Position numbers and translations under genes: made by a program. A DNA stretch of 64,000 nucleotides from Janthinobacterium lividum (GTDB lineage: Bacteria > Pseudomonadota > Alphaproteobacteria > Acetobacterales > Acetobacteraceae), in assembly GCA_050920955.1 (NCBI GenBank), contig JBPBQS010000159.1, positions 2,272-66,271 on the forward strand, written 5' to 3'. The notes beneath the pieces are model-generated. The model made no database searches. It was not told the DNA's origin and saw only the letters and a program-made list of their open reading frames with translations. Of this stretch, positions 3,166 through 57,155 are shown piece after piece; position 1 is the first letter of the stretch; each line of letters opens with the position of its first letter.

Positions 3166-3168
3166 GAA

Positions 3169-3291
3169 GGAAGCATGAGGCGCTGCCTCAAACTCCGCCA
3201 AGGGAAGCCCCTTGGATGGCTTCCCTTAAGTCAAGGGATCAAAGGGTCCTCGGACCCTTTGCGGGTTTGGGCAGAGCCCATGCTTGCTTCC
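3169..3291. repeat. mosaic hairpin repeat copy 2 (full, two arms around CTTAAG)
   Basis: GGAAGCATGAGGCGCTGCCTCAAACTCCGCCAAGGGAAGCCCCTTGGATGGCTTCCCTTAAG + inverted arm ...AAAGGGTCCTCGGACCCTTTGCGGGTTTGGGCAGAGCCCATGCTTGCTTCC. Confidence 0.95.
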
Positions 3292-4606: not shown

Positions 4607-7342
4607 ATGACTGACGTCGTCGTCGTCGAATCGCCCGCCAAGGCCAAGACCATCAACAAGTACCTCGGGGACGGCTACACCGTGCTCGCCTCCTTCGGGC
4701 ACGTGCGCGACCTGCCGCCCAAGGACGGCAGCGTGCGGCCCGACGAGGACTTCGCGATGGACTGGGAGGCCGACGAGCGCGGCCAGCGCCAGATCACCGC
4801 CATCGTCAAGGCGCTCAAGGGCGCCGAGCACCTCTACCTCGCGACCGACCCGGACCGTGAGGGCGAGGCGATCTCGTGGCACGTCCGCGCCATGCTCGAG
4901 GAGAAGGGCGCGCTGCGCGGCGTCGACGTCCAGCGCATCACCTTCAACGAGATCACCAAGTCCGCCGTGCAGCGCGCGATGGAGCAGCCGCGCGAGCTGG
5001 ACCTGCCGCTGATCGAGGCGTACCTCGCCAGGCGGGCGCTGGACTACCTGGTGGGGTTCACGCTGTCGCCGGTGCTGTGGCGCAAGCTGCCGGGCAGCCG
5101 CTCGGCGGGGCGCGTGCAGTCCGTCGCGCTGCGCCTGGTGTGCGAGCGCGAGGCGGAGATCGAGGCGTTCCGGCCGCGCGAGTACTGGACGGTCGAGGCC
5201 CACATGGCCACGCCCGCGGGCGCGCCGTTCGTGGCGCGGCTGACGCACCTCGACGAGAAGAGGCTCGACCAGTTCGACCTGAACGCGGAGCCGCTGGCAC
5301 TGGCGGCCAGGGCGCAGGTCGAGGCGGGGGGCTTCGAGGTCGCCGGCGTGGAGCGGCGGCGCGTCAAGCGCAACCCGCCGGCGCCGTTCACGACGTCGAC
5401 GCTGCAGCAGGAGGCCAGCCGCAAGCTCGGCATGGGCGCGCAGGCGGCGATGCGCACAGCGCAGCAGCTCTACGAGGGCATCGAGCTGGGCGGCGAGACG
5501 ACGGGGCTGATCAGCTACATGAGGACCGACGGCGTCTCGATGGCGCGCGAGGCGATCGACTCGATCCGCGAGCATGTCGGGGCGGCGTTCGGCGAGCGGT
5601 ATCGGCCGGCGGCGCCGCGCGAGTACCACGCGAAGGCGAAGAACGCGCAGGAGGCGCACGAGGCGGTGCGGCCGACCGACGTCGCGCGCACGCCGGAGAT
5701 GATGGCGCCGTACCTGAACACGGAGCAGGCGCGGCTGTACGAGCTGGTGTGGAAGCGCGCGGTCGCGAGCCAGATGCAGTCGGCGGAGCTGGACCAGGTC
5801 ATCGTGGAGGTCGCCGACCCTGGCAGGCCGGACGGGCCGAAGCTGCGGGCCAACGGGTCGATCATCGCGTTCGACGGGTTCCTGCGCCTCTACCGCGAGG
5901 GCGTGGACGAGGGCGAGGAGGAGGAGAGCCGGATGCTGCCGCCGATGGCGGAGCGCGACCCCCTCGCCTGCCCCAAGGTGGACGCCTCGCAGCACTTCAC
6001 GCAGCCGCCGCCGCGCTACTCCGAGGCCAGCCTCGTCAAGATGATGGAGGAGCTGGGGATCGGGCGTCCCTCGACGTACGCCTCGATCCTGACCGTGCTG
6101 CGCGACCGCTCCTACGTGCGCATGGAGAACAAGCGCTTCGTGCCCGAGGACCGCGGCCGCCTGGTCACGGCTTTCCTCGCGAGCTTCTTCGAGCGCTACG
6201 TGGACACCGGCTTCACCGCCGGGCTCGAGGAGCAGCTCGACGAGATCAGCGACGGCACGGCGCAGTGGCGCGCGGTGATGCACGCGTTCTGGGCCGACTT
6301 CTCCAAGGCGGTCGAGCAGACGCGCGAGCTGAAGATCTCCGACGTCATCGACGCGCTGGACGGCGACCTCGGCGAGCACTTCTTCCCCGCGCGCGCCGAC
6401 GGGACCGACCCGCGGCTGTGCCCGGCGTGCCACGCGGGGCGGCTCGGGCTCAAGCTCGGGCGGCACGGCTCGTTCATCGGCTGCTCGAACTACCCGGGGT
6501 GCCAGTACACGCGGAGGCTGGCGATCGAGGGCGGCGAGGGCGACGGCGAGACCCTGAAGGAGGGCCGCCGCGAGCTGGGGCCGAACCCGGACGGCGGGCA
6601 GATGGTCACCGTGCGCCGCGGGCCGTACGGGCTCTACGTGCAGCAGGGCGAGGCGGACCCCGAGGACAAGAAGGTCAAGCCGAAGCGGACGTCGCTGCCC
6701 AAGGGCATGGACGGGGACGCGATGACGCTGGAGCAGGCGCTGGGGCTGCTGTCGCTGCCGCGCTTCGTGGGCACGCACCCCGAGGCGGGCGAGCCGATCG
6801 AGGCGGGCATCGGGCGCTTCGGGCCGTACGTGAAGATGGGCGCGATCTACGGCTCGCTCGACAAGGACGACGACGTGCTGGCGGTCGGGCTGAACCGCGC
6901 CGTCGACGTGCTGGCGCGCAAGCTGGCGAGCGTGCGCGCGCTGGGCGAGCACCCGAAGGACCGCGCGCCGGTGATCGTCAAGAAGGGGCGCTTCGGGGCG
7001 TACATCCAGCACAACACGATGGTCGCCAACGTGCCGCGCGGCGTGGAGATGGACGACGTGACGCTGGAGGACGCGGTGGCGCTGCTCGCCGAGCGGGGCA
7101 AGCCGCTCAAGGCCAAGCCGGGGGCGCGCAAGGCCAAGCCGGCGGCCAAGGCACCGGCCGCGAGGAAGCCGAAGGCGGCGGACGCGGACGCGGCGGATCA
7201 GGCCAAGCCCGCGGCGGCGAAGAAGGCGGCGCCGAAGAAGAAGGCTGCGGCGAAGAAGCCCGCGGCGAAGGCCAAGGCCAAGGCCGCGAAGCCGAAGGCC
7301 GCGAAGGCGGTCGCCAGCGCCGGGTCCGGCGAGGCGGACTGA
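4607..7342 (+). CDS. topA: DNA topoisomerase I
   Basis: 911-aa protein with a Toprim N-terminus (VVVESPAKAKTINKYLG), the active-site YMRTDG and one Cys4 zinc ribbon. It ends in a Lys/Ala/Pro-rich tail. Confidence 0.97.
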   Translation: MTDVVVVESPAKAKTINKYLGDGYTVLASFGHVRDLPPKDGSVRPDEDFAMDWEADERGQRQITAIVKALKGAEHLYLATDPDREGEAISWHVRAMLEEKGALRGVDVQRITFNEITKSAVQRAMEQPRELDLPLIEAYLARRALDYLVGFTLSPVLWRKLPGSRSAGRVQSVALRLVCEREAEIEAFRPREYWTVEAHMATPAGAPFVARLTHLDEKRLDQFDLNAEPLALAARAQVEAGGFEVAGVERRRVKRNPPAPFTTSTLQQEASRKLGMGAQAAMRTAQQLYEGIELGGETTGLISYMRTDGVSMAREAIDSIREHVGAAFGERYRPAAPREYHAKAKNAQEAHEAVRPTDVARTPEMMAPYLNTEQARLYELVWKRAVASQMQSAELDQVIVEVADPGRPDGPKLRANGSIIAFDGFLRLYREGVDEGEEEESRMLPPMAERDPLACPKVDASQHFTQPPPRYSEASLVKMMEELGIGRPSTYASILTVLRDRSYVRMENKRFVPEDRGRLVTAFLASFFERYVDTGFTAGLEEQLDEISDGTAQWRAVMHAFWADFSKAVEQTRELKISDVIDALDGDLGEHFFPARADGTDPRLCPACHAGRLGLKLGRHGSFIGCSNYPGCQYTRRLAIEGGEGDGETLKEGRRELGPNPDGGQMVTVRRGPYGLYVQQGEADPEDKKVKPKRTSLPKGMDGDAMTLEQALGLLSLPRFVGTHPEAGEPIEAGIGRFGPYVKMGAIYGSLDKDDDVLAVGLNRAVDVLARKLASVRALGEHPKDRAPVIVKKGRFGAYIQHNTMVANVPRGVEMDDVTLEDAVALLAERGKPLKAKPGARKAKPAAKAPAARKPKAADADAADQAKPAAAKKAAPKKKAAAKKPAAKAKAKAAKPKAAKAVASAGSGEAD

Positions 7343-9734: not shown

Positions 9735-11680
9735 GCCGACCCCGCCGCCCCGCCTGCCCCGTCCGGTCCGGGTTCGCGTCCCCGTCGCGTGACAGCCGTG
9801 GCCGCCGCAGGCTCGCGGGCTGGGCCTGCGCGCTGCTGCTGGCGGGGGCGCCGGGCCCGGTCGCGGTGCGCGCGCAGCCGGCCGACGCCGGGGCCGCGGA
9901 GCCGGGCGAGCCGGCGGGGCCGGTCGTGGCGGCGCCGGTCGCGGCGCTGCCGGTCGTGGCGCTGCGGCGCGAGGCCGATGCGGGCCCGGACGGCGCGCAG
10001 CGTGGCGAGGCGGGCCGGGACGAAGCGGGCCGGCGCGAGACGGACACGGTCGACACCACCGGCCAGCCGGCCCCCCCGGTCGCGCCCGCGCCCCCTGCCC
10101 TGCCCGCGGACGCCGCGGCCGGACAGCAGGACGCGGCGGGGTTCGACACGCTGCTGGCCGGGCAGGTGATCGGCACCGCGCTGGCGTTCATCGCGCCGCG
10201 CTCGCTCGACCCGACCACGGTGCCGGGCCTCGCCGCGTGGGGCCTGCAGGGCCTGGCGACGCTCGACCCGTCGCTGCGGCTGCGCGTCGGCGGCGGCGTG
10301 ATCCGCCTCGACCTCGCGCCGGCCGCCACGGCGCCGGGCGGGGGTGCGGACGCGGCCGCCGAGCCCGCAGGGTTCGCGCGGCCGTTCCCGCCTGACGTGG
10401 ACGCCTCCGCCTGGGGCGCCGCGAGCGCGGCCGCGATGCGCTGGGCGTGGGACCGTTCGGCGACCCTGCGGGCGGCGGGCGGCGAGGCGCTGCTGCAGGG
10501 CTACTTCGACGAGATCTTCTCCCACCTCGACCCGTACTCCCGCTACGTGCCGCCGGACCGCGCGGAGCACGTGCGCGACCGTCTCGCCGGCCAGGTGGGC
10601 GTGGGCGTCGAGCTGGCCCGCCTCGGCGCCAACCTGGTGCTGGCCACGGTGGCGGCGAACGGGCCGGCGGCGCAGGCCGGGCTGCGCGCGGGCGACCGGC
10701 TGCTGGCCGTCGACGGCGTGCCGACCCGCGGCGCGCCGGTGGCCGCGGTCGCCGCGAGCCTGGTCGGCGAGGAGGACAGCGAGGTGCGCCTGCGCGTGGC
10801 GGGGCCGCACGAGGCGGCGCGCACGCTGGCGCTGCGCCGCGCCGTGGTGCCGCCCGAGACGGTGTTCGCCGAGCGGCGGCCGGGCGCTTCCGGCGTGCTG
10901 CTGTCGCTGCGCATCACCGCCTTCACCGCCGACACCGCGCAGCGCCTGAGCCAGGAGCTGGAGGCCGGGCTCGACTCCCGTGTCACCGGCCTGGTGATCG
11001 ACCTGCGCGGCGACCGCGGCGGGCTGCTGCGCCAGGCGGTCACCGCGGTGGCGCTGCTGCTCGACCAGGGCGTCGTGGCGACCACGGTGGGGCGCGACCC
11101 GGAGGCCTCGCGCGTGTGGCGCGTGCAGGGCGGCGACCTCGCGAACCGCCTGCCGATCGTGGTGCTGGTCGACGGGCGCACCGCGTCGGCCGCCGAGATC
11201 ATGGCGGCGGGTCTGGCGGACCAGCGGCGCGCGGTGGTGGTGGGCAGCGCCACGACGGGCAAGGGCGTGGTGCAGACGCTCACGGAGCTGCCGGACGGCG
11301 GCGAGATCTTCGTGACCTGGAGCCGGGTGCTGGCGCCGCGCGGCTGGCCGCTGCAGGGGCTCGGCGTGCTGCCGCAGCTGTGCACCAGCCTCGGCGCAGA
11401 GACCACGGCCCGCCAGCTCCGCAGCTTGGCGGCGGGCACGCAGGAGCTGGCGCCGGCGCTGCAGGCGTGGCGGGCGGCGCGGGCGCCGCTGGACGCGCAC
11501 GCGGTCGCGGAGATGCGCGGGGCGTGCCCGGCGGCGGAGGGGCGGGACCGGGACTTCGACACGGCGCGCGCCCTGCTGGGGCACCCGGGGGCGTACGCGG
11601 CGGCGCTGCTGCCGGCGCAGGAAGAAAGGTCGGGCTCTGCCCGAACCCGCAAAGGGTCTGAGGACCCTTTGATCCCTTGA
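9731..11680 (+). CDS. S41 family C-terminal processing peptidase (secreted)
   Basis: Has a PDZ segment (GLRAGDRLLAVDG), DLRGDRGG and GRTASAAEI motifs, and a signal-like N-terminus. Start is inferred as a GTG overlapping the rnr stop, since there is no ATG. The last ~20 codons run into repeat copy 3. Confidence 0.75.
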   Translation: MSRPRRPACPVRSGFASPSRDSRGRRRLAGWACALLLAGAPGPVAVRAQPADAGAAEPGEPAGPVVAAPVAALPVVALRREADAGPDGAQRGEAGRDEAGRRETDTVDTTGQPAPPVAPAPPALPADAAAGQQDAAGFDTLLAGQVIGTALAFIAPRSLDPTTVPGLAAWGLQGLATLDPSLRLRVGGGVIRLDLAPAATAPGGGADAAAEPAGFARPFPPDVDASAWGAASAAAMRWAWDRSATLRAAGGEALLQGYFDEIFSHLDPYSRYVPPDRAEHVRDRLAGQVGVGVELARLGANLVLATVAANGPAAQAGLRAGDRLLAVDGVPTRGAPVAAVAASLVGEEDSEVRLRVAGPHEAARTLALRRAVVPPETVFAERRPGASGVLLSLRITAFTADTAQRLSQELEAGLDSRVTGLVIDLRGDRGGLLRQAVTAVALLLDQGVVATTVGRDPEASRVWRVQGGDLANRLPIVVLVDGRTASAAEIMAAGLADQRRAVVVGSATTGKGVVQTLTELPDGGEIFVTWSRVLAPRGWPLQGLGVLPQLCTSLGAETTARQLRSLAAGTQELAPALQAWRAARAPLDAHAVAEMRGACPAAEGRDRDFDTARALLGHPGAYAAALLPAQEERSGSARTRKGSEDPLIP

Positions 11681-11745
11681 CTTAAGTAAAGCCATCCAAG
11701 GGGCTTCCCTTGGCGGAGTTTGAGGCGGAGCCTCATGCTTGCTTG
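11620..11745. repeat. mosaic hairpin repeat copy 3 (full)
   Basis: Same two arm types as copy 2 in the opposite order, with central CTTAAG. Confidence 0.95.
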
Positions 11746-17336: not shown

Positions 17337-17383
17337 GGACCAGGAACGCGGCACGGGCGGGGGTTGTTCCCGAGGCAAGGCAA

Positions 17384-17503
17384 GGAAGCATGGGCGCTGC
17401 CCAAACCCGCAAAGGGTCCGGGGACCCTTTGATCCCCTTACTTAAGGGATGCGTTCCAAGGGCGCAGCCTTTGGCGGAGTTTGAGGCGGAGCCTCAACCT
17501 TCC
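17384..17503. repeat. mosaic hairpin repeat copy 5 (full)
   Basis: GGAAGCATGGGCGCTGCCCAAACCCGCAAAGGGTCCGGGGACCCTTTGATCCCCTTACTTAAG + GGATGCGTTCCAAGGGCGCAGCCTTTGGCGGAGTTTGAGGCGGAGCCTCAACCTTCC. Confidence 0.95.
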
Positions 17504-19368
17504 TGCTCGCCGAGGATGCGCAGCACGTCCTTGCCGTAGCGCTCCAGCTTCGACGCGCCGACGCCCTTGATCCGGCTCATCTCATCCAGCGTCGCGGGCC
17601 GCACCGCGACGATGTCGCGCAGCACGCTGTCGGCGAAGATGACGTAGGGCGGCAGCGACTGCGCGCGTGCCTGCTCCGTGCGCCAGGCGCGCAGGGCGGC
17701 GAACGGGCCCTCGTCGCCGGGCTCGGCGGGCACGCGGGCGCGCTCGGCCGAGCCGCCCGCGCGTCGGCTGCGTCGGTCGGCGCTCTCCTCGCGCTCGAGG
17801 TCGCGGTCGCGCACGAGGTCCTCCTCGCGCAGCATGACCGTGGCCTCGCCGCGCAGGATCGGGCGCGCGGTGTCCGGCTCCAGCGAGAGCGTGGCGTACT
17901 CGCCGCTCTCGGTGCGCAGGGCGCCGCGGGCGATGAGCTGGCGGATCACGCCGCGCCAGAAGCCGCGCGACTCCTCGGCGCCGATGCCGAACAGGGGGAG
18001 CTTGTCGTGGCCGTGGCGCTTGATGGCGTCGGTCTCGCGGCCGCGGAGCACGCTGACGATGTGCAGCGCGCCGAAGCGCTGGCCGGTGCGGTAGACGGCG
18101 GACAGCGCCTTGCGGGCGGCGTCGGTGCCATCGAACAGCTTGGCGGGGTTGCGACAGTTGTCGCAGTGGCCGCACTCGTCCGCGAGCGCCTCGCCGAAGC
18201 AGCCGAGCAGCGCGCGGGTGCGGCACGCCGTGGTCTCGGAGAGCGAGATCATCGACTCCAGGCGCGCGCGCATCACCTCGCGCTGCTGCTCGGGCGCCTG
18301 CGACTGCGCGAGCCAGTGCCGCGCGCGGGCAATGTCCTCGCCGCCGTAGAGCAGGAGCGTGTCGGCGCGCTCGCCGTCGCGCCCGGCGCGGCCGATCTGC
18401 TGGTAGTAGGACTCCGGGCTGTCGGGCATGTCGAGGTGGGCGACGAAGCGCACGTCGGGCCGGTCTATGCCCATGCCGAACGCGATGGTCGCGCAGATCA
18501 CCACCGGCTCGCCGGAGCGGAAGCGCGTCAGGCCGGCGCGCTTCTCGATCGGCGACAGCCCGGCGTGGAACGGGATCGCGACCCGCCCGTCCTGCGCCAG
18601 GCGCGCCGCGGTGCGCTCGGTCTTGTTGCGGCTGCCGCAGTAGACGATGCCGGCCTGCCCGGGGTGGCGGTTGAGGAACGCCGCGAGCTGCTGGGACTCC
18701 GACGCCTTCGCCGAGGCCGCGATGTGCAGGTTGTCGCGGTGGAAGCTCGCCGCGAACACGGCGGCGTCGTTCATGTCGAGGTTGGCGAGGATGTCGGCGC
18801 GCGTGCGCGGGTCCGCCGTCGCCGTCAGCGCCACGCGGGGCACGCCGGGGAAGCGCTGCCGCAGCCCCGCCAGCGCGCGGTACTCCGGCCGGAACTCGTG
18901 CCCCCACGCCGAGACGCAGTGCGCCTCGTCGATCGCGACCAGCGCCACCTCGATGCGCGACAGCCGGTCCAGCGTGGCGCCGGACAGCAGCCGCTCCGGC
19001 GAGACGTAGAGCAGGTCGAGCGTGCCGTCGGCCAGGGCGCGCGCCGTCTCGCGCGCCTCGTCGGGGTCCAGCTCGGAGTGCAGGGCGCCCGCGCGTATGC
19101 CGAGCTGTCGCAGGGCGGCGACCTGGTCGTCCATCAGCGCGATCAGCGGCGAGATCACGACGGCCGTGCCCTCGCGGCACAGCGCGGGGACCTGGTAGCA
19201 CACGGACTTGCCGCCGCCGGTGGGCATGAGCACGAGGGCGTCGCCGCCGTTCGTGACGTGCATCACGGCGTCGCGCTGCAGGCCGCGGAAGGCGGGGAAG
19301 CCGAACACGCGGGCGAGCACGGAGTCGGGGTCGCGGGCGGGGGGCGGCTGGAAGGCGGGGGCGCTCAT
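17494..19368 (-). CDS. recQ: ATP-dependent DNA helicase RecQ
   Basis: 624-aa protein with the DEAH box VAIDEAHCVSAWGHEFRP, a Zn-binding CxxCDNC segment and a C-terminal HRDC domain. Its stop codon lies inside repeat copy 5. Confidence 0.95.
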   Translation of the reverse strand: MSAPAFQPPPARDPDSVLARVFGFPAFRGLQRDAVMHVTNGGDALVLMPTGGGKSVCYQVPALCREGTAVVISPLIALMDDQVAALRQLGIRAGALHSELDPDEARETARALADGTLDLLYVSPERLLSGATLDRLSRIEVALVAIDEAHCVSAWGHEFRPEYRALAGLRQRFPGVPRVALTATADPRTRADILANLDMNDAAVFAASFHRDNLHIAASAKASESQQLAAFLNRHPGQAGIVYCGSRNKTERTAARLAQDGRVAIPFHAGLSPIEKRAGLTRFRSGEPVVICATIAFGMGIDRPDVRFVAHLDMPDSPESYYQQIGRAGRDGERADTLLLYGGEDIARARHWLAQSQAPEQQREVMRARLESMISLSETTACRTRALLGCFGEALADECGHCDNCRNPAKLFDGTDAARKALSAVYRTGQRFGALHIVSVLRGRETDAIKRHGHDKLPLFGIGAEESRGFWRGVIRQLIARGALRTESGEYATLSLEPDTARPILRGEATVMLREEDLVRDRDLEREESADRRSRRAGGSAERARVPAEPGDEGPFAALRAWRTEQARAQSLPPYVIFADSVLRDIVAVRPATLDEMSRIKGVGASKLERYGKDVLRILGEQEG

Positions 19369-19399: not shown

Positions 19400-19526
19400 G
19401 GAAGCGAGCATGGGCTCTGCCCATACCCGCAAAGGGTCCGAGGACCCTTTGATCCCGTTTACTTAAGGGAAGCCATCCAAGGGGCTTCCCTTGGCGGAGC
19501 TCGAGGCGGAGCCTCGACCTCGCTTC
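19400..19526. repeat. mosaic hairpin repeat copy 6 (full)
   Basis: Arm set as in copy 3; stem-1 variant is GTCGAGG/CCTCGA. Confidence 0.95.
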
Positions 19527-20812: not shown

Positions 20813-20978
20813 GGAAGCAAGGCCAGAGGCTCCGCCTCTGGACTCCGCCAAAGGCTCGCCTTTGGAAACCCCGACTCCAGGCCGGCGGCACCAGCCGTCG
20901 CGGCGTGCCGCCGGCCTCATGTGCGCCGGTCCAGGGGCGCCGCCCCTGGCGGGTCCAGGGCAGCGCCCTGGCCTTGCC
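20813..20978. repeat. mosaic hairpin repeat copy 7 (composite, no CTTAAG; spacer with 12-bp hairpin)
   Basis: GGAAGCAAGGCCAGAGGCTCCGCCTCTGGACTCCGCCAAAGGCTCGCCTTTGGAAACCCC, then GGCCGGCGGCAC..GTGCCGCCGGCC, then an inverted arm ending CCAGGGCAGCGCCCTGGCCTTGCC. Confidence 0.85.
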
Positions 20979-24830: not shown

Positions 24831-26090
24831 TCACGCCGCGCAGAGCACCTCCCGCACCGCCGCGGTCAGCGCGTCGATCTCGCCGGCGTCCAGCGTGAAG
24901 GCCGGCGTGAGGTAGACGATGCGGCCGAACGGGCGCAGCCACACGCCCGCCGCGACGAAGCGCTGCCGCAGCGTGTCCAGGTCCGCGGTGCCGGCCTCGC
25001 CCGGCGCGTGCTCCAGCTCCACCACGCCGATCGCGCCCAGCACGCGCACGTCGCGCACGTTCCCGAGCGCCCGGCACGGCTCCAGCCCGCGCGACAGCGC
25101 CGCCGACAGCGACGCGACCTGCGCCAGCCGCGGCTCCTCGTCGAACAGCGCCAGGGAGGCGAGCGCCGCGGCGCACGCCAGCGGGTTCGCCATGTACGTC
25201 GGCCCGTGCATGAGCGCAGCACCCGCGTCGTCGGACCAGAACGCCGCGAACACCTCGGCCGAGGCCACCGTCGCGGCCAGCGGCAGCGTGCCCCCGGTTA
25301 GCGCCTTGGACAGCGTCACGATGTCAGGCGCCACCCCCGCCGCCTGGCAGGCGAACATCGCCCCGGTGCGGCCGAACCCCGTGAAGATCTCGTCGGCGAT
25401 CAGCAGCACGCCGTGCCGGTCGGCGAGCCTGCGCACCCGTCGCAGCGTGTCGGCCGCGTGGAACACCATCCCGCCCGCGCCCTGCACCAGCGGCTCGACC
25501 AGGATCGCCGCGACCTCGTGCGCGTGGCGGCCGAGCAGCGCGTCGAGCGCCGCCTCCGACGCGTCGTCGCGCGGCAGCTCCGCCGTGATCTGCGCGGGCA
25601 GCACGCCGGCGAAGCGCGCGTGCATCCCCCCGTCCGGGTCGCAGACCGACATCGTGGCGAAGGTGTCGCCGTGGTAGCCGTCGCGGAACGACACGAACCG
25701 CGTGCGCCGCCGCCCCCGGTTCAGGCTCGCTTGCACCGCCATCTTCATCGCGACCTCGACGGCCACCGAGCCCGACTCGGTGAAGAACACGCGCTCCAGC
25801 CGCGGCGCGCCCTCCGACAGCATCCCGACCAGCCGCTCGGCGAGCGCCAGCGCCGGCTCGTGCACCAGGCCCGCGAACATCACGTGCGGCATGCGGTCGA
25901 GCTGCCGGCGCACGGCGTCGGCGATGCGCGGGTGGTTGTAGCCGTGGCACGCGGTCCACCACGACGCGATGCCGTCGAGCAGCACGCGGCCGTCGGCCAG
26001 CTCGATCCGCGCGCCCTCTGTGCGGACGACGCGGAGCGGGGCGGGCGCGGTCTTCATCTGCGTGTAGGGGAGCCAGAGGCAACCGCTCAT
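24831..26090 (-). CDS. bioA: adenosylmethionine-8-amino-7-oxononanoate aminotransferase
   Basis: LWLPYTQMK, SWWTACHGYNHP and PLP-Lys TLSKALTGG motifs. The track TTG start at 26096 is inside repeat copy 8; ATG 26090 is preferred. Confidence 0.93.
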   Translation of the reverse strand: MSGCLWLPYTQMKTAPAPLRVVRTEGARIELADGRVLLDGIASWWTACHGYNHPRIADAVRRQLDRMPHVMFAGLVHEPALALAERLVGMLSEGAPRLERVFFTESGSVAVEVAMKMAVQASLNRGRRRTRFVSFRDGYHGDTFATMSVCDPDGGMHARFAGVLPAQITAELPRDDASEAALDALLGRHAHEVAAILVEPLVQGAGGMVFHAADTLRRVRRLADRHGVLLIADEIFTGFGRTGAMFACQAAGVAPDIVTLSKALTGGTLPLAATVASAEVFAAFWSDDAGAALMHGPTYMANPLACAAALASLALFDEEPRLAQVASLSAALSRGLEPCRALGNVRDVRVLGAIGVVELEHAPGEAGTADLDTLRQRFVAAGVWLRPFGRIVYLTPAFTLDAGEIDALTAAVREVLCAA

Positions 26091-26091
26091 C

Positions 26092-26219
26092 GGCAAGCAA
26101 GGTCGGGCTCTGCCCGAACCCGCAAAGGGTCCGAGGACCCTTTGATCCCATTACTTAAGTGAAGCCATCCAAGGGGCTTCCCTTGGCGGAGTTTGAGGCA
26201 GCGCCTCAACCTTGCTTCC
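26092..26219. repeat. mosaic hairpin repeat copy 8 (full; fills the bioB-bioA gap)
   Basis: GGCAAGCAAGGTCGGGCTCTGCCCGAACCCGCAAAGGGTCCGAGGACCCTTTGATCCCATTACTTAAG + GTGAAGCCATCCAAGGGGCTTCCCTTGGCGGAGTTTGAGGCAGCGCCTCAACCTTGCTTCC. Confidence 0.95.
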
Positions 26220-26220
26220 T

Positions 26221-27195
26221 TCACCCGGCCGTCGGCGTCATGCCCAGCCGCGCGAGGAGCGCCGCGTCGCGGTCCTCCCCCGGGTTCGGCGTGGTGAGCA
26301 GGCGGTTGCCGCCGAAGATCGACGCGGCGCCGGCGAGGAAGCACAGGGCCTGGGTCTCGTCGCTCATGCCCTCGCGGCCGGCGGCGAGGCGGATGGTGGA
26401 GTGCGGCATCAGGACGCGGGCGGCGGCGATGACGCGCACGAAGCGGATCGGGTCGGTGGCGGGCTGGTCGCCGAGGGGCGTGCCCTCGACGCGGACGAGC
26501 ATGTTGATGGGCACGCTCTCGGGGTGGCGCGGCAGGGTGGCGAGGGCGTGGAGGAGGCCGGCCTGGTCGTCCTCGTCCTCGCCCATGCCGACGATGCCGC
26601 CGCAGCAGACGTGGACGCCGGCGTCGCGGACGTGGCCCAGCGTGTCGAGGCGGTCCTGGTAGGTGCGCGTGGTGATGATGGCGCCGTAGTGCTCGGGCGA
26701 GGTGTCGAGGTTGTGGTTGTAGTAGTCCAGGCCCGCGCCCGCGAGGCGCCGCGCCTGGGGGGCGCTGAGCATGCCCAGCGTGGCGCAGCTCTCCAGGCCG
26801 AGGGCGCGCACGCCCTCGACCATCTCGCAGACCTCGTCGAGCTCGTGGTCCTTGGGCGAGCGCCAGGCGGCGCCCATGCAGAAGCGCGTGGCGCCGGCGT
26901 CGCGGGCGGCGCGGGCGGCGCCGAGCACCTCGGCGACGCGCAGCAGGCGGCTGGCGGGGATGGTGTGCTCGTGGCGCGCGCTCTGCGGGCAGTAGGCGCA
27001 GTCCTCGGGGCAGCCGCCGGTCTTGATGGACAGCAGGGTCGCGACCTGCACGCGGGTCGGGTCGAAGCGGGCGCGGTGGACGCTCTGCGCCTGGAACATC
27101 AGCTCGGGGAACGGCAGGGCGAGGAGTGCCTGGACCTCGGCGCGGGTCCAGTCGTGGCGGGGCGCCGGGGCATCGTGCAGGGTCGTCACGGACAT
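26221..27195 (-). CDS. bioB: biotin synthase
   Basis: Radical-SAM motif [21 protein letters not shown] sits 6 nt before the ATG at 27195; the track start is 27210. Confidence 0.95.
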
Positions 27196-32019: not shown

Positions 32020-32685
32020 ATGCCCACCCTGTTCGTGACCGCGACCGGCACCGACGTCGGCAAGTCCTACGTCTCCGCCGGCCTGCTCCGCGCCGCCCTG
32101 GCGCGCGGCGCCCCCGTGTCCGCGCTCAAGCCGGTCGCCAGCGGCCACGACCCCGCGCGCCTCGGCGACACCGACGCCGCCGTGCTGCTCCGCGCCCTCG
32201 GCCGCCCGGTGACGGCCGAGTCGGTCGCCGCGTGCTCGCCGTTCCGCTTCGCCGCCCCCCTGTCGCCCGACATGGCGGCGCGGCGCGAGGGCCGCTCGAT
32301 CTCGCTGGAGGCCGTGCTGGGCGTGTGCCGGGCGGCCGAGGGGCCGGGGGCGCTGCTGGTCGAGGGCGTGGGCGGCGTGATGGTGCCGCTGGACGGGCGG
32401 CGCGGCGTGCTGGACTGGGTGGCGGGGCTCGGCTGCCCGGCGGTAGTGGTGGCGGGGAGCTACCTCGGCACGATCAGCCACAGCCTGACCGCCCTGGCGG
32501 TGCTGCGCGCGCGCGGCGTGCCGGTCCTGGCGCTGCTCGTCAGCGAGACCGAGGACAGCAGCGTGGGCCTCGGCGAGACGGTCGCGGCGCTGGCGGAGCA
32601 GGCGGCGCCGTGCCCCGTCCTGGCGGTGCCGCGCGGCGGCGGCGAGGCGGCGTTCGCGCAGGTCGCGGGGGCATGGCTCGGGTAG
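32020..32685 (+). CDS. bioD: dethiobiotin synthase
   Basis: P-loop TGTDVGKSYVS; 221 aa. Confidence 0.9.
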   Translation: MPTLFVTATGTDVGKSYVSAGLLRAALARGAPVSALKPVASGHDPARLGDTDAAVLLRALGRPVTAESVAACSPFRFAAPLSPDMAARREGRSISLEAVLGVCRAAEGPGALLVEGVGGVMVPLDGRRGVLDWVAGLGCPAVVVAGSYLGTISHSLTALAVLRARGVPVLALLVSETEDSSVGLGETVAALAEQAAPCPVLAVPRGGGEAAFAQVAGAWLG

Positions 32686-32811
32686 CAAGCATGGGCTCTG
32701 CCCAAACCCGCCAGGGGCGAGCCGCCCCTGGACCGGCCTCCTTAAGTGAAGCCAGTCCAGGGCGGCTCGCCCTGGCGGAGTTTGAGGCAGAGCCTCAACC
32801 TTGCTTGCTTG
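32685..32811. repeat. mosaic hairpin repeat copy 10 (full)
   Basis: Both arms carry the CCAGGG(G)CGAGCCGCCC(C)TGG hairpin-2 variant around CTTAAG. Confidence 0.92.
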
Positions 32812-36504: not shown

Positions 36505-37595
36505 GCGACGACGCGCCGCTCGTGGACGTGTCGCTCGCCGACGGCGCAAGCCGGCGCGACATCCTCGGCGAGGGCTGGTGCGAGGGCGAGCGCGACGGCA
36601 CCTGGACCGGCGACTCCGAGGCCCGGCTGCACCTGCCCCTGCCACCCGGCGCGGAGGCCTGCGTGCTGCGCCTCCACGCCGCCCCCTACCGCGTCGCGCA
36701 CAAGCTCGGCGCGCAGCGCGTGCTGGTGCTGGCCGACGGCCGCCTGCTCGGCCGCCTGCGCCTCGACGCGCCGGGCGAGGCCTCGCTCGCGATCCCGGCG
36801 GAAGCAGTGCGCGGCCGGCGCGTGCTGTCGCTGACGCTGCTGCTGCCCGACGCGCGCCGCCCGTCCGAGCTGGGCGACAGCGACGACCGCCGCCTGCTCG
36901 CCCTCTTCGTCGCCCGCGTGGCGCTCCTGCTCCCCGGGCCCGACGCGCCCTCCCCGTCCGCCGACGCCCCCCCGCCCGCTGACCGCGCGCTGCTGGAGGG
37001 CTTCGAGTCGCTGGGCTGGAACGAGGAGTTCGGCTTCGTGCAGCGCCGCGTCCTGGCGGAGCCCGCGGGCCTGCTGCGCTGGTCGTCCTGGCCGCTCGGC
37101 GCCGCCGTGCTGGCCGAGGCGCTCGACGCCGCGCTGTTCGGCGTGGGCGACCCGGCCCAGCTCGCGGTCGACGGCGAGGCCGACTCCTGGGTCGCCACCG
37201 ACCGCCGCTGGGGCCTGCGCACCGACACGCAGGTCGCGGTCCACGCGATGCCGGCCGACGTCCTGCGCGCCCGCGAGTCGGCGGCGCGCGGGATGCTGCG
37301 CGCGCGGCTGCTGTCCACGTTGCGCGAGGGCCGCCGCGTCCTGGTGCACCTGGAGCGCGACCCCGCCGAGCGCGGCGCTGCGGACGCGCTGGCGGCCGCG
37401 GTGGCGGCGTGGGGCGGGTGCCCGCTGCTGTGGGTCTCGCGGGGGCCGGAGGTCGCGGTGCGTCGGCGCGGCGGGCTGCTGGAGGCGACGCTGCCGCGGC
37501 TGGCGCCCCCGGGGAACCTGGCGCGGGTCGCGGAGGAGGACTGGCTGGCGGTGTGCCGGGAGGCGTGGCGGCTGGCGGGAGGCAGGCAGGCATGA
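36495..37595 (+). CDS. hypothetical protein
   Basis: 366 aa with a 10-nt overlap on the esterase stop and consistent high-GC3 codon use. No motif I can name. Confidence 0.55.
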   Translation: MPLSDDAPLVDVSLADGASRRDILGEGWCEGERDGTWTGDSEARLHLPLPPGAEACVLRLHAAPYRVAHKLGAQRVLVLADGRLLGRLRLDAPGEASLAIPAEAVRGRRVLSLTLLLPDARRPSELGDSDDRRLLALFVARVALLLPGPDAPSPSADAPPPADRALLEGFESLGWNEEFGFVQRRVLAEPAGLLRWSSWPLGAAVLAEALDAALFGVGDPAQLAVDGEADSWVATDRRWGLRTDTQVAVHAMPADVLRARESAARGMLRARLLSTLREGRRVLVHLERDPAERGAADALAAAVAAWGGCPLLWVSRGPEVAVRRRGGLLEATLPRLAPPGNLARVAEEDWLAVCREAWRLAGGRQA

Positions 37596-37761
37596 GGCTC
37601 CGCCTCAAACTCCGCCAAGGGAAGCCCCTTGGATGGCTTCCCTAAGCAAGGCCAGTCCAGGGCGGCTCGCCCTGGCGGGTTTGGGCGTAGCTGGCCAAAG
37701 GTTCCGACGACCCCCTTGGGTCGTTGGAAGGCCAGCGGAGGGAGAGCCCATGCTTGCTACC
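37581..37761. repeat. mosaic hairpin repeat copy 11 (composite with nested ~55-bp insertion)
   Basis: The left arm ends CCTAAG. The right arm GCGGGTTTGGGC|AGAGCCCATGCTTGC is interrupted by an extra hairpin module, CCGACGACCCCCTTGGGTCGTTGG. Confidence 0.85.
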
Positions 37762-46015: not shown

Positions 46016-46149
46016 GGAAGAAAGCAAGGCCAGAGGCTCTGCCTCTGGACTCCGCGCAAGGCTCGCCTTGAGAATCCAATACTTAAGTCATGGGATCAAA
46101 GGGTCCTCGGACCCTTTGCGGGTTTGGGCAGAGCCCATGCTTGCTTGCC
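46016..46149. repeat. mosaic hairpin repeat copy 13 (full; between wzm and wzt)
   Basis: GGAAGAAAGCAAGGCCAGAGGCTCTGCCTCTGGACTCCGCGCAAGGCTCGCCTTGAGAATCCAATACTTAAG + inverted AAAGGGTCC-type arm. Confidence 0.93.
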
Positions 46150-49247: not shown

Positions 49248-49376
49248 GGAAAGCAAGTAAGGTTGAGGCGCTGCCTCAAACTCCGCCAAGGGAAGCCCCT
49301 TGGATGGCCTTACTTAAGTAAAGGGATCAAAGGGTCCTCGGACCCTTTGCGGGTTCGGGCAGAGCCCGACCTTGTC

Positions 49377-50983: not shown

Positions 50984-51128
50984 GGCAAGAAAGGAAGCAT
51001 GGGCTCTGCCCAAACCCGCCAGAGGCCTGAGGCCTTTGGAAACCCATCCCTGAAGCAGGAACCCCTTCCATGCGCCGGTCCAGGGCGGCTCGCCCTGGCG
51101 GGTCCAGGGCGGCGCCCTGGCCTTGCCT
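50984..51128. repeat. mosaic hairpin repeat copy 16 (composite, no CTTAAG)
   Basis: GGAAGCATGGGCTCTGCCCAAACCCGCCAGAGGCCTGAGGCCTTTGGAAACCC, a spacer, then GGTCCAGGGCGGCTCGCCCTGGCGGGTCCAGGGCGGCGCCCTGGCCTTGCC. Confidence 0.85.
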
Positions 51129-52469
51129 TCACCCCGCGTGCGTCGCCGCCAGGTCGCTCTCGATCTGCTCCAGGCTCCGCCCCCGCGTCTCCGGCACGAG
51201 CCGCCAGGTGAACGCGATCGCCGCGAGCGTCATCGCCGCGAACACCAGGAACGTCCCCCCGCTGCCGAGCGCGCGCACGAGGTCGAGGAACACGAGCGTG
51301 ACCGCGAGGTTCGACCCCCAGTTCGCGACGCTCGCCGTGCTCATGCCCCGCCCGCGCACGGCCAGCGGGAAGATCTCCGCGATCAGCAGCCAGAACACCG
51401 GCCCGAGCCCCACCGCGAAGCCCGCGATGTACAGCCCGAGCGCGCCCACCGTCACCGCCGCCAGCCCCGGCCCCGCGCCGAGCAGGAACGCCCCGGCCAG
51501 CACCAGCAGCGCGGCCGCCATCACCCCCATGCCCGCCAGCAGCAGCACACGTCGCCCCGCGCGGTCGATCAGCCGCATCGCGACCAGCGTCATCGCCACG
51601 TTGACTGCCCCGATCCCCACGGTGGCCAGGATCGCCGCCGACGCCGACGCCAGCCCCGCCGACTGCACGATGGTCGGCGCGAAGTAGATCACGGTGTTGA
51701 TGCCCGTGACCTGCTGGAACACCGCGAGCCCCACGCCGACCACCAGCGGCCGCCTGGCCTGCGGCGTGCGCAGCATCCGGCGCAGCGAAACCTCCTCCCC
51801 CCCGTGCCGCAGGTCCTGCTTCAGCGCGGCGAGCTCGCCCGCCGTCTCGCCGTGCCCGCGCAGGAAGCGCAGCGCGCGCTCCGCGTCCTGCGTGCGCCCC
51901 CGTGCGGCCAGCCAGCGCGGGCTCTCCGGCAGCACGAGCATCCCCGCCGCCAGCGCCACCCCCGGCACCACGCCAAGGCCCAGCATCCAGCGCCACCCGC
52001 CGTCGGTGCCGGCCAGCGCGTAGTCCACCACGTAGGACAGCAGGATGCCGAAGGTGATGCAGAACTGGTTGAGCGAGACCACCGCGCCGCGCTTCTCCGA
52101 CGGCGCGATCTCGGACAGGTAGAGCGGCGTCAGCATGGACGCGACCCCGATCGCCAGCCCCACCAGCAGCCGCGCCGCCAGCAGCACCCACAGCGCCCCC
52201 GCCATCCCCGACAGCAGCGCGCCCGCCGCGAACAGCACCGCCACGCACACGATCACCGGCCGCCGCCCGAAGCGGTCCGACAGCGCCCCCGCCCCCGCGG
52301 CCCCCGCCGTGGCGCCCACCAGGACGACGCCGGTCACCACGTCCTGCATCGTGGGCGACAGCGCGAAGCGCGCGCGCAGGAACAGCAGCGCGCCGGAGAT
52401 CACCCCCGTGTCGTAGCCGAACAGCAGGCCGCCCAGCGACGCCACGGCGGACAGCAGGAAGAAGCGCAT
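51129..52469 (-). CDS. MFS sugar porter family transporter
   Basis: LFGYDTGVISGAL, DRFGRR and PESPRWL motifs with 12 TM segments. Confidence 0.9.
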   Translation of the reverse strand: MRFFLLSAVASLGGLLFGYDTGVISGALLFLRARFALSPTMQDVVTGVVLVGATAGAAGAGALSDRFGRRPVIVCVAVLFAAGALLSGMAGALWVLLAARLLVGLAIGVASMLTPLYLSEIAPSEKRGAVVSLNQFCITFGILLSYVVDYALAGTDGGWRWMLGLGVVPGVALAAGMLVLPESPRWLAARGRTQDAERALRFLRGHGETAGELAALKQDLRHGGEEVSLRRMLRTPQARRPLVVGVGLAVFQQVTGINTVIYFAPTIVQSAGLASASAAILATVGIGAVNVAMTLVAMRLIDRAGRRVLLLAGMGVMAAALLVLAGAFLLGAGPGLAAVTVGALGLYIAGFAVGLGPVFWLLIAEIFPLAVRGRGMSTASVANWGSNLAVTLVFLDLVRALGSGGTFLVFAAMTLAAIAFTWRLVPETRGRSLEQIESDLAATHAG

Positions 52470-52482
52470 GGGCGGGGACTCC

Positions 52483-52609
52483 GGAAAGGAAGCATGGGCT
52501 CTGCCCAAACCCGCAAAGGGTCCGAGGACCCTTTGATCCCTTTACTTAAGTAAAGCCATCCAAGGGGCTTCCCTTGGCGGAGCTCGAGGCGGAGCCTCGA
52601 CCTTGCTTC
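52483..52609. repeat. mosaic hairpin repeat copy 17 (full)
   Basis: Near-identical architecture to copies 3 and 6. Confidence 0.95.
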
Positions 52610-53204
52610 ACTCCGCCGAGAACGCCGCGATCAGCCGCTCGATCGGGTCCCACGCGTAGGCGACCTGCGGCACGGACGTGCCGGCGACGAGCACGCTGTC
52701 GGCCATGACCGCCCGCCCGCCGATGCGCTCGTAGAACCACCGGCTGGGGTTGTCGCGCAGCACCCAGCAGAACGCCGAGCGGCACCCCAGCTCGGCCAAG
52801 TGCGCAGCCCCCGCCCCGATCAGGCGCCGCCCGAGCCCGCGGTCGCGCCAGTCGTCGAGCACGTAGAGCGTCTCGATCTCGCCCTCCCCGAGCGGCTGCG
52901 CCCGCGCGAGGGCGCCGCCCTCGCCCGGCACGGCGTCCGGCCGCGACAGCGTGCCCCAGGGCGTGACGCGCCTGGCGCGGCCCACGGTGACGAAGCCCGC
53001 GATGCGCGGCACGCCGGCGGCGGCGGCCACGAACACGCCGCCGTCGCGGATGGTGCGCTCGTACTCCGCCGCCTTGCGCCGCGCCGACAGCCCCGCGAGG
53101 AACGCGTCCGGCAGCAGCCCCGGATACGCGCTGCGCCACGCCGCGACGTGCACCGCGGCGATGGCCGGCGCGTCACCCGGACGCGCGCGGCGGATCGCGA
53201 TCAT
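52608..53204 (-). CDS. GNAT family N-acetyltransferase
   Basis: 198 aa with acetyl-CoA motif RDRGLGRRLI. Its start has an ATGA overlap with the rsmB stop. Confidence 0.8.
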   Translation of the reverse strand: MIAIRRARPGDAPAIAAVHVAAWRSAYPGLLPDAFLAGLSARRKAAEYERTIRDGGVFVAAAAGVPRIAGFVTVGRARRVTPWGTLSRPDAVPGEGGALARAQPLGEGEIETLYVLDDWRDRGLGRRLIGAGAAHLAELGCRSAFCWVLRDNPSRWFYERIGGRAVMADSVLVAGTSVPQVAYAWDPIERLIAAFSAE

Positions 53205-55283: not shown

Positions 55284-55408
55284 GGAAGCAAGGCCGGGCT
55301 CTGCCCGGACCCGCCAGGGCGAGCCGCCCTGGACTGGCCTCTTTTAAGGGGATTCCAAAGGCGAGCCTTTGGCGGAGTCCAGAGGCGGAGCCTCTGGCCT
55401 TGCTCGCT

Positions 55409-57020: not shown

Positions 57021-57155
57021 GGCAAAGCGAGCAAGCATGGGCTCTGCCCAAACCCGCCAGGGCGAGCCGCCCTGGACTGGCCTTACTTAAGTTGTGCGTT
57101 CCAAGGGCGCAGCCTTTGGCGGAGTCCAGAGGCAGCGCCTCTGGCCTTGCTTGCC
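57021..57155. repeat. mosaic hairpin repeat copy 19 (full)
   Basis: GCGAGCAAGCATGGGCTCTGCCCAAACCCGCCAGGGCGAGCCGCCCTGGACTGGCCTTACTTAAG + GTTGTGCGTTCCAAGGGCGCAGCCTTTGGCGGAGTCCAGAGGCAGCGCCTCTGGCCTTGCTTGCC. Confidence 0.93.

Follow-up and report, generated by a model that had tools for sequence, protein, structure and literature searches.

In a 64,000-nt stretch of genomic DNA (contig JBPBQS010000159.1, positions 2,272 to 66,271; this whole stretch is the window below, and coordinates are given in its numbering unless another sequence is named), one full copy of a ~130-nt intergenic repeat lies at 26093-26219 and occupies the entire gap between two minus-strand genes. The upstream gene, read as bioB, ends in a stop codon at 26221-26223 (TCA on the plus strand, i.e., TGA in the gene), 1 nt from the repeat, and the downstream gene, read as bioA, begins with a start codon at 26088-26090 (CAT on the plus strand, ATG in the gene), 2 nt from the other terminus of the repeat, at a site conserved in the cross-species alignment. 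The translation of this downstream gene, MSGCLWLPYTQMK, resembles in our own reading what we take to be the N-terminus of BioA. The account of the repeat that we put forward, with moderate confidence, is that it belongs to an undescribed family, specific to one uncultured genus of Acetobacteraceae and numbering ~950 loci in a genome of 3.7 Mb, similar to repetitive extragenic palindromic (REP) sequences and bacterial interspersed mosaic elements (BIMEs), under structural constraint and evolving in concert.

The repeat consists of two inverted homologous arms around a central CTTAAG, and each arm is laid out as a purine-rich terminus, a hairpin here called A, a linker and a second hairpin, B, giving four hairpins per element; what a preliminary description of this DNA had called hairpin 1 is hairpin A of either arm. 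Read along the plus strand, the left terminus, GCAAGCAAGG, a purine-rich repeat of two to three AAGN units in the position profile (26093-26102), leads into the left hairpin A, TCGGGC-TCT-GCCCGA (26103-26117; DNA fold -7.1 kcal/mol), which has a G-type core, GGGC/GCCC. The left linker, ACCCGC (26118-26123), is unpaired in the local fold and near invariant, its form being tied to the type of stem core, and is followed by the left hairpin B, CAAAGGGTC-CGAG-GACCCTTTG (26123-26144), one of at least 14 paired stem types. Beyond a variable spacer (26145-26168), which contains the central palindrome at 26154-26159, the right arm runs through hairpin B, CCAAGGG-GCTT-CCCTTGG (26169-26186; placed by sequence, DNA fold and alignment fold), the linker CGGAGT, complement of ACTCCG (26187-26192, placed by sequence), and hairpin A, TTGAGGC-AGC-GCCTCAA (26193-26209), the homologue of the left hairpin A with an A-type core, GAGGC/GCCTC. 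It ends in the right terminus CCTTGCTTCC (26210-26219, likewise placed by sequence), the inverted partner of 26093-26102, and the element therefore has terminal inverted repeats, GCAAGCAAGG ... CCTTGCTTCC, in addition to its homologous inverted arms. Most elements join one G-core arm to one A-core arm in this way; hairpin A stands on a foot of AAGG or AAGC and hairpin B on CCGC, and the stability of the hairpins as DNA ranges from -4.6 to -12.7 kcal/mol.

The preliminary description had listed seven stem variants of hairpin A in which both strands change together, and we checked these by genome-wide counts of stem types. All seven exist throughout the genome, with complementary halves in each. 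The most abundant are TTGAGGC/GCCTCAA (267 copies), CCAGAGGC/GCCTCTGG (259), CCGGGC/GCCCGG (257) and (A)TGGGC/GCCCA(A) (232), followed by CCAGGGC/GCCCTGG (153) and TCGGGC/GCCCGA (119). The stem TCGAGGC/GCCTCGA has 28 copies under the strict linker pattern and 118 if all arms with these outer pairs are counted, many arms of this type carrying the linker GCTCCGC. Missing from the earlier list were CTGGGC/GCCCAG (26 copies) and several rarer types. Hairpin-A loops follow the pattern N-C-Y (TCT, GCT, CCT, TCC), and the linkers are ACCCGC or ACTCCGC.

To avoid circularity, arms were also located by an anchor outside hairpin A, inside loci found by nhmmer; the hairpin-B anchor was limited to these loci, its unrestricted use having given many background matches in coding DNA. 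Among 1310 arms anchored independently, 1243 (95%) had at least five perfect pairs around a 3-nt loop, and the two variable outer pairs were complementary in 96.1% of 1269 arms versus 27.0% expected from the marginal frequencies. In 140 randomly drawn distinct arms the covariation score was 0.404 versus 0.127 in shuffles (0 of 500 shuffles), cells changed on both sides numbered 222 versus 87.9 +/- 7.1, and 83.5% of cells were paired versus 66.9%, while slid controls reached a score of at most 0.168. Alignment pairs 14-28, 15-27 and 16-26 each show two to four Watson-Crick types, with few unpaired cells except those of an allele ending in A·A. This A·A at the outermost position (~280 copies) is the sole common mismatch in hairpin A. 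Complementary haplotypes otherwise occur in 26-270 copies and mismatched ones in 1-17, among the latter the chimeric stem TCGAGGC/GCCTCAA with 15-17 copies. The outer-stem alleles CCA/TGG, TC/GA, AT/A·A and TT/AA are each found on both GGGC and GAGGC cores, i.e., base pairs reassort as units between outer stems and cores.

The fold that these pairs describe is local. RNAalifold applied to 34 whole elements returned four local hairpins, whereas single-sequence minimum free energy structures also allow long-range pairing from arm to arm. We rejected the latter: the alignment fold is local, the CAT-type (A·A-ended) stem alleles and the loops of the two arms vary independently, and the cores of the two arms are usually unlike. 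For the CAT-type allele in particular, no association was found between the arms of one element (Fisher p = 0.60). Folded as RNA, the two strands gave about equal results (-69 and -70 kcal/mol, z = -5.5 and -4.0).

The genome that carries the window (G000) comprises 3.71 Mb in 349 contigs with 73% GC. It holds 955 loci according to nhmmer, which amount to ~3% of its DNA, and ~16 of these non-overlapping loci lie in the 64-kb window, 13 of them near full length. A regular expression for the invariant core GGC-NNN-GCC plus linker recovered ~1600 arms genome-wide, of which 554 facing pairs have a spacing fixed at 90-110 nt. All genomes of the genus are short-read metagenome-assembled genomes (MAGs); seven were sampled, two of them at 98% completeness, and all seven hold hundreds of copies. 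Outside the genus, matches were obtained in 3 of the 34 other genera sampled, all of them weak. By pattern scan the hosts are uncultured Acetobacteraceae MAGs, and diverged relatives with the same architecture occur in a second genus of Acetobacteraceae as well as in two further MAGs of Alphaproteobacteria. No match to the element was found in the plasmid collection. One of the genomes compared below, G001 (JBPBQX01), is a MAG of this Acetobacteraceae genus and 73% GC lineage that was deposited as Janthinobacterium lividum, evidently a mislabel.

The elements lie between genes; as a rule they start directly at a stop codon and take up the gap that follows. Of 689 elements, 643 are outside accepted open reading frames (ORFs), and an element is present between 26% of adjacent ORF pairs. 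The gap from stop codon to element has a median of 1 nt genome-wide, with 365 of 711 gaps between -5 and +4, and the distance at which the stop codon stands before the purine-rich terminus varies within 2-22 nt. Convergent gaps with an element are not longer than those without (150 versus 163 nt), and by gap class (tandem, convergent and divergent gaps) the element counts of 194, 205, 156 and 134 follow the proportions of a background of 738, 722, 574 and 499. Stop codons directly before or overlapping the (AAGN)n terminus take forms such as TGAAGCAAGG, TAGCAAGCAAGG and TAAGCAAGG, with examples in the window at 17494-17503 and 20917-20978, and start codons can sit 2-3 nt from the opposite end of the element without a Shine-Dalgarno sequence, as at bioA. 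A close spacing of REPs to stop codons in E. coli is said to have been described by Liang et al. in 2015.

The copies are old and sedentary, with the same gene junctions occupied throughout the genus. For full elements of G000, the orthologous site was non-empty in 53 of 53 cases in G001, 44 of 44 in G006, 40 of 40 in G003 and 16 of 16 in G005, with flanks down to 84% identity, and an element occupies the bioB-bioA junction itself in five species. In G003 and G005, several sites are shorter by up to 96 nt and represent truncated remnants. Arms that are not perfectly paired were flagged more often in G005 (15 of 52) than in G006 (17 of 166) or G003 (16 of 138), and the family looks decayed in G005, where its density is about a third. 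At the same time, the identity between orthologous elements falls from 0.895 in G001 to 0.762, 0.770 and 0.635 in G006, G003 and G005, while the best of 120 paralogues reaches 0.90-0.94. With copies within a genome at least 90% alike and orthologues down to 0.76 and 0.64, the family has evolved in concert with its fold retained.

How the copies are kept alike can be seen from the comparison of G000 with G001, whose orthologue flanks are 95% identical. Among 98 orthologous pairs of hairpin A, 37 were identical, 23 differed in the loop only, 25 in both halves and 13 in one half. The two-sided changes are jumps between recognisable alleles that carry unpaired neighbours along; for instance, the switch between CAT...A and GTC...G alters the base before the stem, and the switch between TT...AA-A and TC...GA-G alters the first linker base. 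Chimeric stems are directly seen at two orthologous sites (#7 and #35), and whole hairpin-B modules have been swapped at orthologous sites. These changes are block replacements from other copies, most simply gene conversion, rather than paired point mutations. The family evolves in concert by the blockwise replacement, between copies, of ~10 self-complementary hairpin-A alleles and at least 14 hairpin-B alleles, and since alleles are replaced as blocks, the seven stem variants stand for a handful of ancient events. Allele frequencies differ among species: ATGGGC/GCCCAA accounts for 15% of G000 arms and was absent from the listed types in 400-kb samples of G006 and G003. In G006 and G003, one of the major types is CCAGGGGC/GCCCCTGG, which is rare in G000.

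The same orthologous pairs show where the element has been held constant. Between G000 and G001, divergence was 14/950 (1.5%) in the core stems of hairpin A, 7/634 (1.1%) in the linkers and 1/106 (0.9%) at loop position 2, compared with 10.0% at third and 2.6% at second codon positions. Other sites changed faster than third positions, namely loop positions 1 and 3 (20%), the outer stem (20.5%, by allele switching) and the centre (24%). Judged from these rates, the resident copies appear to be under purifying selection; only ~1/3 of hairpins have switched since the split of G000 and G001, so that homogenisation alone could hardly give a ten-fold deficit. At loop positions 1 (T/G/C) and 3 (T/C) the same variants recur on every stem allele, and the middle C is invariant, a pattern that suggests hypermutable exposed bases around a constrained one in the hairpin-A loop.

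A further regularity extends beyond the paired bases. The stem core and the linker are coupled in all arms, GGGC/GCCC occurring with ACCCGC, GAGGC/GCCTC with ACTCCGC and GGGGC/GCCCC with ACCCCGC, as can be seen in the window at 26105-26123 and 26187-26207, and the outer half between them reassorts freely. This outer half is flanked on its two sides by the 3' core half and the linker, so that the interleaved linkage cannot come from one linear tract. The linker is a mirror repeat of the 3' core half, and the three-way linkage GAGG/CCTC/CTCC, GGG/CCC/CCC and GGGG/CCCC/CCCC would fit the mirror-repeat code of a pyrimidine-purine-pyrimidine intramolecular triplex. A more specific picture can be drawn, which we regard as speculative and doubtful: instead of a parasite on the move, the family would be a transposase-less population of vertically inherited, structured elements that the host has maintained at hundreds of gene ends for as long as the genus has existed and that gene conversion has homogenised. 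Its functional unit would be hairpin A plus linker, acting as a triple-helical or protein-read signal in DNA or RNA and not as a simple stem-loop.

The reading that we favour is the more general one of a REP/BIME-like family under structural constraint and evolving in concert. Under it, the block replacement would be gene conversion, and the recognised structure would be the local hairpins with the adjacent linker, which would form in single-stranded DNA and, of necessity, also in transcripts of either strand. Copies and alleles whose halves pair would preferentially be kept and spread, and stem sequence would as a result drift between alleles while pairing persists. The product would be a strand-symmetric structural element, most likely read by a putative protein that also contacts the linker. 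By analogy with REPs, its likely role would be that of a protein-bound or nuclease-blocking cluster of hairpins behind stop codons and between cistrons, with mRNA-end protection or processing, supercoiling and the binding of nucleoid proteins as candidate functions.

Several observations count against this reading. The ~10 hairpin-A alleles are common to every sampled species, with frequencies differing, and few independent compensatory events can therefore be counted. The ratio of one-sided to two-sided changes, 13:25, is about that of neutral conversion tracts of 50-100 nt (our own estimate, not a fitted model), so that selection against chimeric stems is undemonstrated in the short term. 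Unpaired positions covary as tightly as paired ones (core with linker, and a G/C in the terminus with stem type), which means that covariation alone does not prove the fold, and the equal conservation of the unpaired linker means that sequence-specific constraint acts beyond pairing. In hairpin B, an allele with ~200 copies retains an A·C mismatch inside its stem, so that pairing need not be perfect. The gene calls behind the positional counts are our own crude ORFs based on GC content at third codon positions, and no mobilising enzyme, binding protein or function was identified for the family. Assemblers of short-read MAGs may also build chimeric 130-nt copies, which would mimic some of the allele switching and of the contrast between orthologues and paralogues; chimeric assembly cannot explain why species differ in allele frequency at the sites they share. 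For the preliminary description, which had argued from at least seven stem variants that the fold is under selection, the outcome is divided: pairing goes far beyond chance, abundant alleles are self-complementary and resident copies are constrained, but the variants are not independent compensatory substitutions. The contrary case that it had named, a few founder subfamilies copied without selection, is matched to the extent that ~10 old shared alleles are replaced as blocks, and the observation of pairing stands all the same.

That contrary case leads to a rival that we consider unlikely, in which early palindromic versions were copied by neutral gene conversion in tracts longer than the hairpin and the halves have stayed matched because they are only 11-13 nt apart, with no present selection. 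It accounts for the shared allele set, for switches that carry unpaired neighbours, for the existence of chimeric stems in 15-17 copies and at two orthologous sites, for the ratio of one-sided to two-sided changes and for the covariation of sites that do not pair. However, it leaves unexplained why every abundant allele is complementary (26-270 copies, versus at most 17 for mismatched ones) and why outer pairs reassort with cores as pairs, with interleaved linkage. Nor does it explain why cores and linkers are ten-fold below third-position divergence though only about a third of the hairpins have switched. Tract ends that fall inside hairpins should also erode the match over the time of the genus, yet mismatched arms amount to just ~4-5% in G000. 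The reassortment of base pairs as units would instead be expected if the hairpin corrected its own halves, without functional selection, by intrastrand template switching or mismatch repair. Such quasi-palindrome correction is an established mutational process, and the short, perfect, GC-rich stems with 3-nt loops, stable as DNA, would suit it; the first and third loop positions change twice as fast as third codon positions, as expected of a loop that is often single-stranded, and insertions targeted to the loops show an accessible DNA hairpin. Nevertheless, mutational templating seems to us just as improbable as neutral conversion, as it does not explain the equal conservation of the unpaired linker and loop position 2, the persistence of the ~200-copy A·C allele of hairpin B and of the ~280-copy A·A end, or the conservation of core sequence beyond mere complementarity.

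Two other rivals take the element to be something other than a resident, strand-symmetric repeat. If it were a recently active MITE, a miniature transposable element with inverted repeats, or a REP doublet forming a hairpin (REPIN), the stem types would be subfamilies from bursts of transposition by a non-autonomous element and the hairpins recognition sites of a transposase, and the high copy number, the terminal inverted repeats and the two homologous inverted arms would be in keeping with this, as would the IS4/IS5-type DDE transposases that each of the seven genomes carries. Among 32 sites of G006 elements, one was found to have a clean empty counterpart, being filled in G006 and empty in G000. 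We nevertheless judge recent mobility very unlikely. The REP-associated tyrosine transposase (RAYT, of the Y1 type; PF01797) was absent from 7 of 7 genus genomes (MAGs) while 6 of 14 control genomes were positive, and IS110-type transposases occur in only two of the seven. The flanks of 509 elements showed no target-site duplication, and neither did the one clean empty/filled pair, in a test weakened by the fuzzy boundary of the element. No autonomous partner with the same ends was found either, in MAGs that may miss copies of insertion sequences (ISs): the ORFs enclosed by 30 facing arm pairs at distances of 0.6-3.5 kb are ordinary and unrelated. G000 and G001 show no presence/absence polymorphism, with 60 sites of G001 elements and 53 of G000 elements (overlapping sets) occupied in both, and there is no empty orthologous site for full G000 elements in G006, G003 or G005. 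The modules, moreover, are mosaics and not tree-like subfamilies, and the family looks sedentary at present. Still harder to credit is a strand-specific structured RNA, whether a small RNA, a cis-regulatory RNA or an intrinsic terminator, with a fold relevant only in the transcript. The element does lie within transcription units, as from bioB to bioA, and both strands fold strongly as RNA. However, no Rfam family matched it, the best hit at the locus being PhotoRC-I with 12.7 bits and E = 0.59, and in the window only two tRNAs reach the Rfam gathering score. Between 25900 and 26420 we found no terminator-like site, the arms ending in CCTTGCTTCC, and no promoter-like pattern. Orientation relative to flanking genes is just 59:41, no strand-specific G·U signal was found (the hairpin-B G·U/A·C allele is transcribed 68:47 in the A·C sense), and divergent, convergent and tandem gaps are used at background proportions.

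Among described systems, the element we read as a REP/BIME-like family is most readily set beside REPs, BIMEs and REPINs, with which it shares short GC-rich extragenic palindromes in hundreds of copies, inverted pairs, mosaics of modules and, for REPs and BIMEs, a transcribed intergenic location that is frequently right behind a stop codon. For REPINs, changes that compensate each other across the hairpin have been noted (PMC3116915), and evolution of REPs by gene conversion was proposed by Higgins et al. 1988, as cited in that paper. REPs are also known targets of IS insertion (PMC3184786, PMC12288879). In contrast to these families, the present element has no GTAG (or CGTC) foot, no RAYT (PF01797) was found in the seven genomes, the long arm-to-arm hairpin of REPINs is unsupported, and the unit is a fixed 130-nt array of four hairpins with two unlike arms (G-core and A-core) that is sedentary across the genus. 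The alphaproteobacterial REPs with a CGTC tag (Di Nocera et al. 2013; PMC3733652) resemble it in having 8-9-bp stems that start with A-T pairs, short loops, unpaired tails and a mostly dimeric arrangement, with no dedicated transposase known, and hairpin B (CCGC, a CAAAGG... stem and a tail) has a similar general look. The same paper reports CGTC-tagged REPs missing in Acetobacteraceae, and the tag here is CCGC or AAGG, not CGTC.

Correia/NEMIS elements of Neisseria, ERIC and bcr1 of Bacillus, MITE-like repeats whose transcripts are structured, are likewise intergenic, 100-160 nt long, bounded by terminal inverted repeats and co-transcribed with their neighbours, and in bcr1 compensatory changes keep a cruciform-like fold (PMC3184786). 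These elements, however, have target-site duplications and positions that are not conserved between strains, whereas here no duplications were found and positions are conserved across species. Integron attC sites are also imperfect palindromes (60-140 nt) placed directly after a stop codon and read as folded single-stranded DNA with structure conserved over sequence, but no RYYYAAC/GTTRRRY core sites are visible by eye in the present element, whose copies are dispersed among core genes in both orientations and form no cassette array. The element works like REPs and BIMEs but is not a demonstrated member of those families; it showed neither the GTAG foot, RAYT and long arm-to-arm hairpin that define REPIN-RAYT systems nor the target duplications, autonomous partner and insertion polymorphism expected of a MITE.

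If the reading of a structurally constrained family evolving in concert is true, it provides a clean natural example of short palindromes persisting without a RAYT, with hundreds of orthologous copies in at least seven species and a rapid turnover of sequence by allele replacement while fold and linker stay fixed. It would bear on whether REP-like repeats are selfish, domesticated by the host or self-homogenising, and the natural alleles that are paired, chimeric or mismatched offer testable material. The advance is a modest one, since other REP and MITE families are already known to show compensatory stem changes, gene conversion, proximity to stop codons and insertion of ISs into their palindromes. 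For annotation, the element matters in practice: it makes up ~3% of the DNA in these genomes, occurs in one of every four intergenic gaps, abuts or overlaps stop and start codons, and is probably responsible for some of the contig breaks and possible chimeric assemblies of these MAGs.

The remaining copies in the window were located by nhmmer. Full copies lie on the plus strand at 11622-11744, 17380-17504, 19402-19526, 32683-32810, 52484-52610 and 57028-57153, and on the minus strand at 3166-3289, 46018-46149 and 49251-49376. A further plus-strand copy lies at 55286-55408, a diverged one at 50990-51126, also on the plus strand, and a composite copy on the minus strand at 37584-37692 carries a ~57-nt secondary insert in one hairpin-A loop. 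At the copy starting at 46018, the orthologous site in G003 is a GC-rich spacer without the element; we considered this 'empty' site as a clean insertion boundary and rejected it, the spacer being unrelated sequence. In G006, C67:15247-15308 lacks ~1.5 kb that is present between the two window elements at 50990-51126 and 52484-52610 (interval 51026-52571), which could be a deletion or an insertion by recombination between elements.

Other sequences have inserted into the element itself. An IS5-family IS (DDE_Tnp_1, ends AGCTAGGGACAAAACC) sits in the central CTTAAG of one copy outside the window (genome C3:56746-59238), with CTTAAG on both sides, and palindromic inserts occupy the same central TTAAG in two other MAGs (L053:~7000-7250 and L091:~100-300). 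The AT-rich centre of the element is an insertion target. The IS5-like IS was rejected as the autonomous partner of the element, its ends being unrelated and the IS itself lying inside the element's centre. The insert of the composite copy belongs to a secondary hairpin element of 55-57 nt, CCCTCCGCTGGCC-TTCCAACGA-..-TCGTCGGAA-..GGCCAGC, which in ~33 copies lies within a loop, either the 3-nt one of hairpin A or that of hairpin B. It is found at ~37572-37759 of the window (C2:39843-40030), at C61:5803-6002 and at ~30 other sites; the loop trinucleotide looks duplicated around it (TCY...TMC), and two of these inserts are missing from the orthologous copy in G001. Within the system, only this secondary element has been mobile recently; its insertion into hairpin loops is a DNA-level event and indicates that the loops are exposed in DNA. 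Lastly, many arms contain an extra segment of 16-20 nt (e.g. CCGCCTTCAAGCATGG) in or beside hairpin A, as at L136:12151-12319 and L143:6327-6506 in G006 and on C85, C111 and C205 in G000; this segment resembles the terminus of the element and may be the scar of a nested insertion or of recombination.

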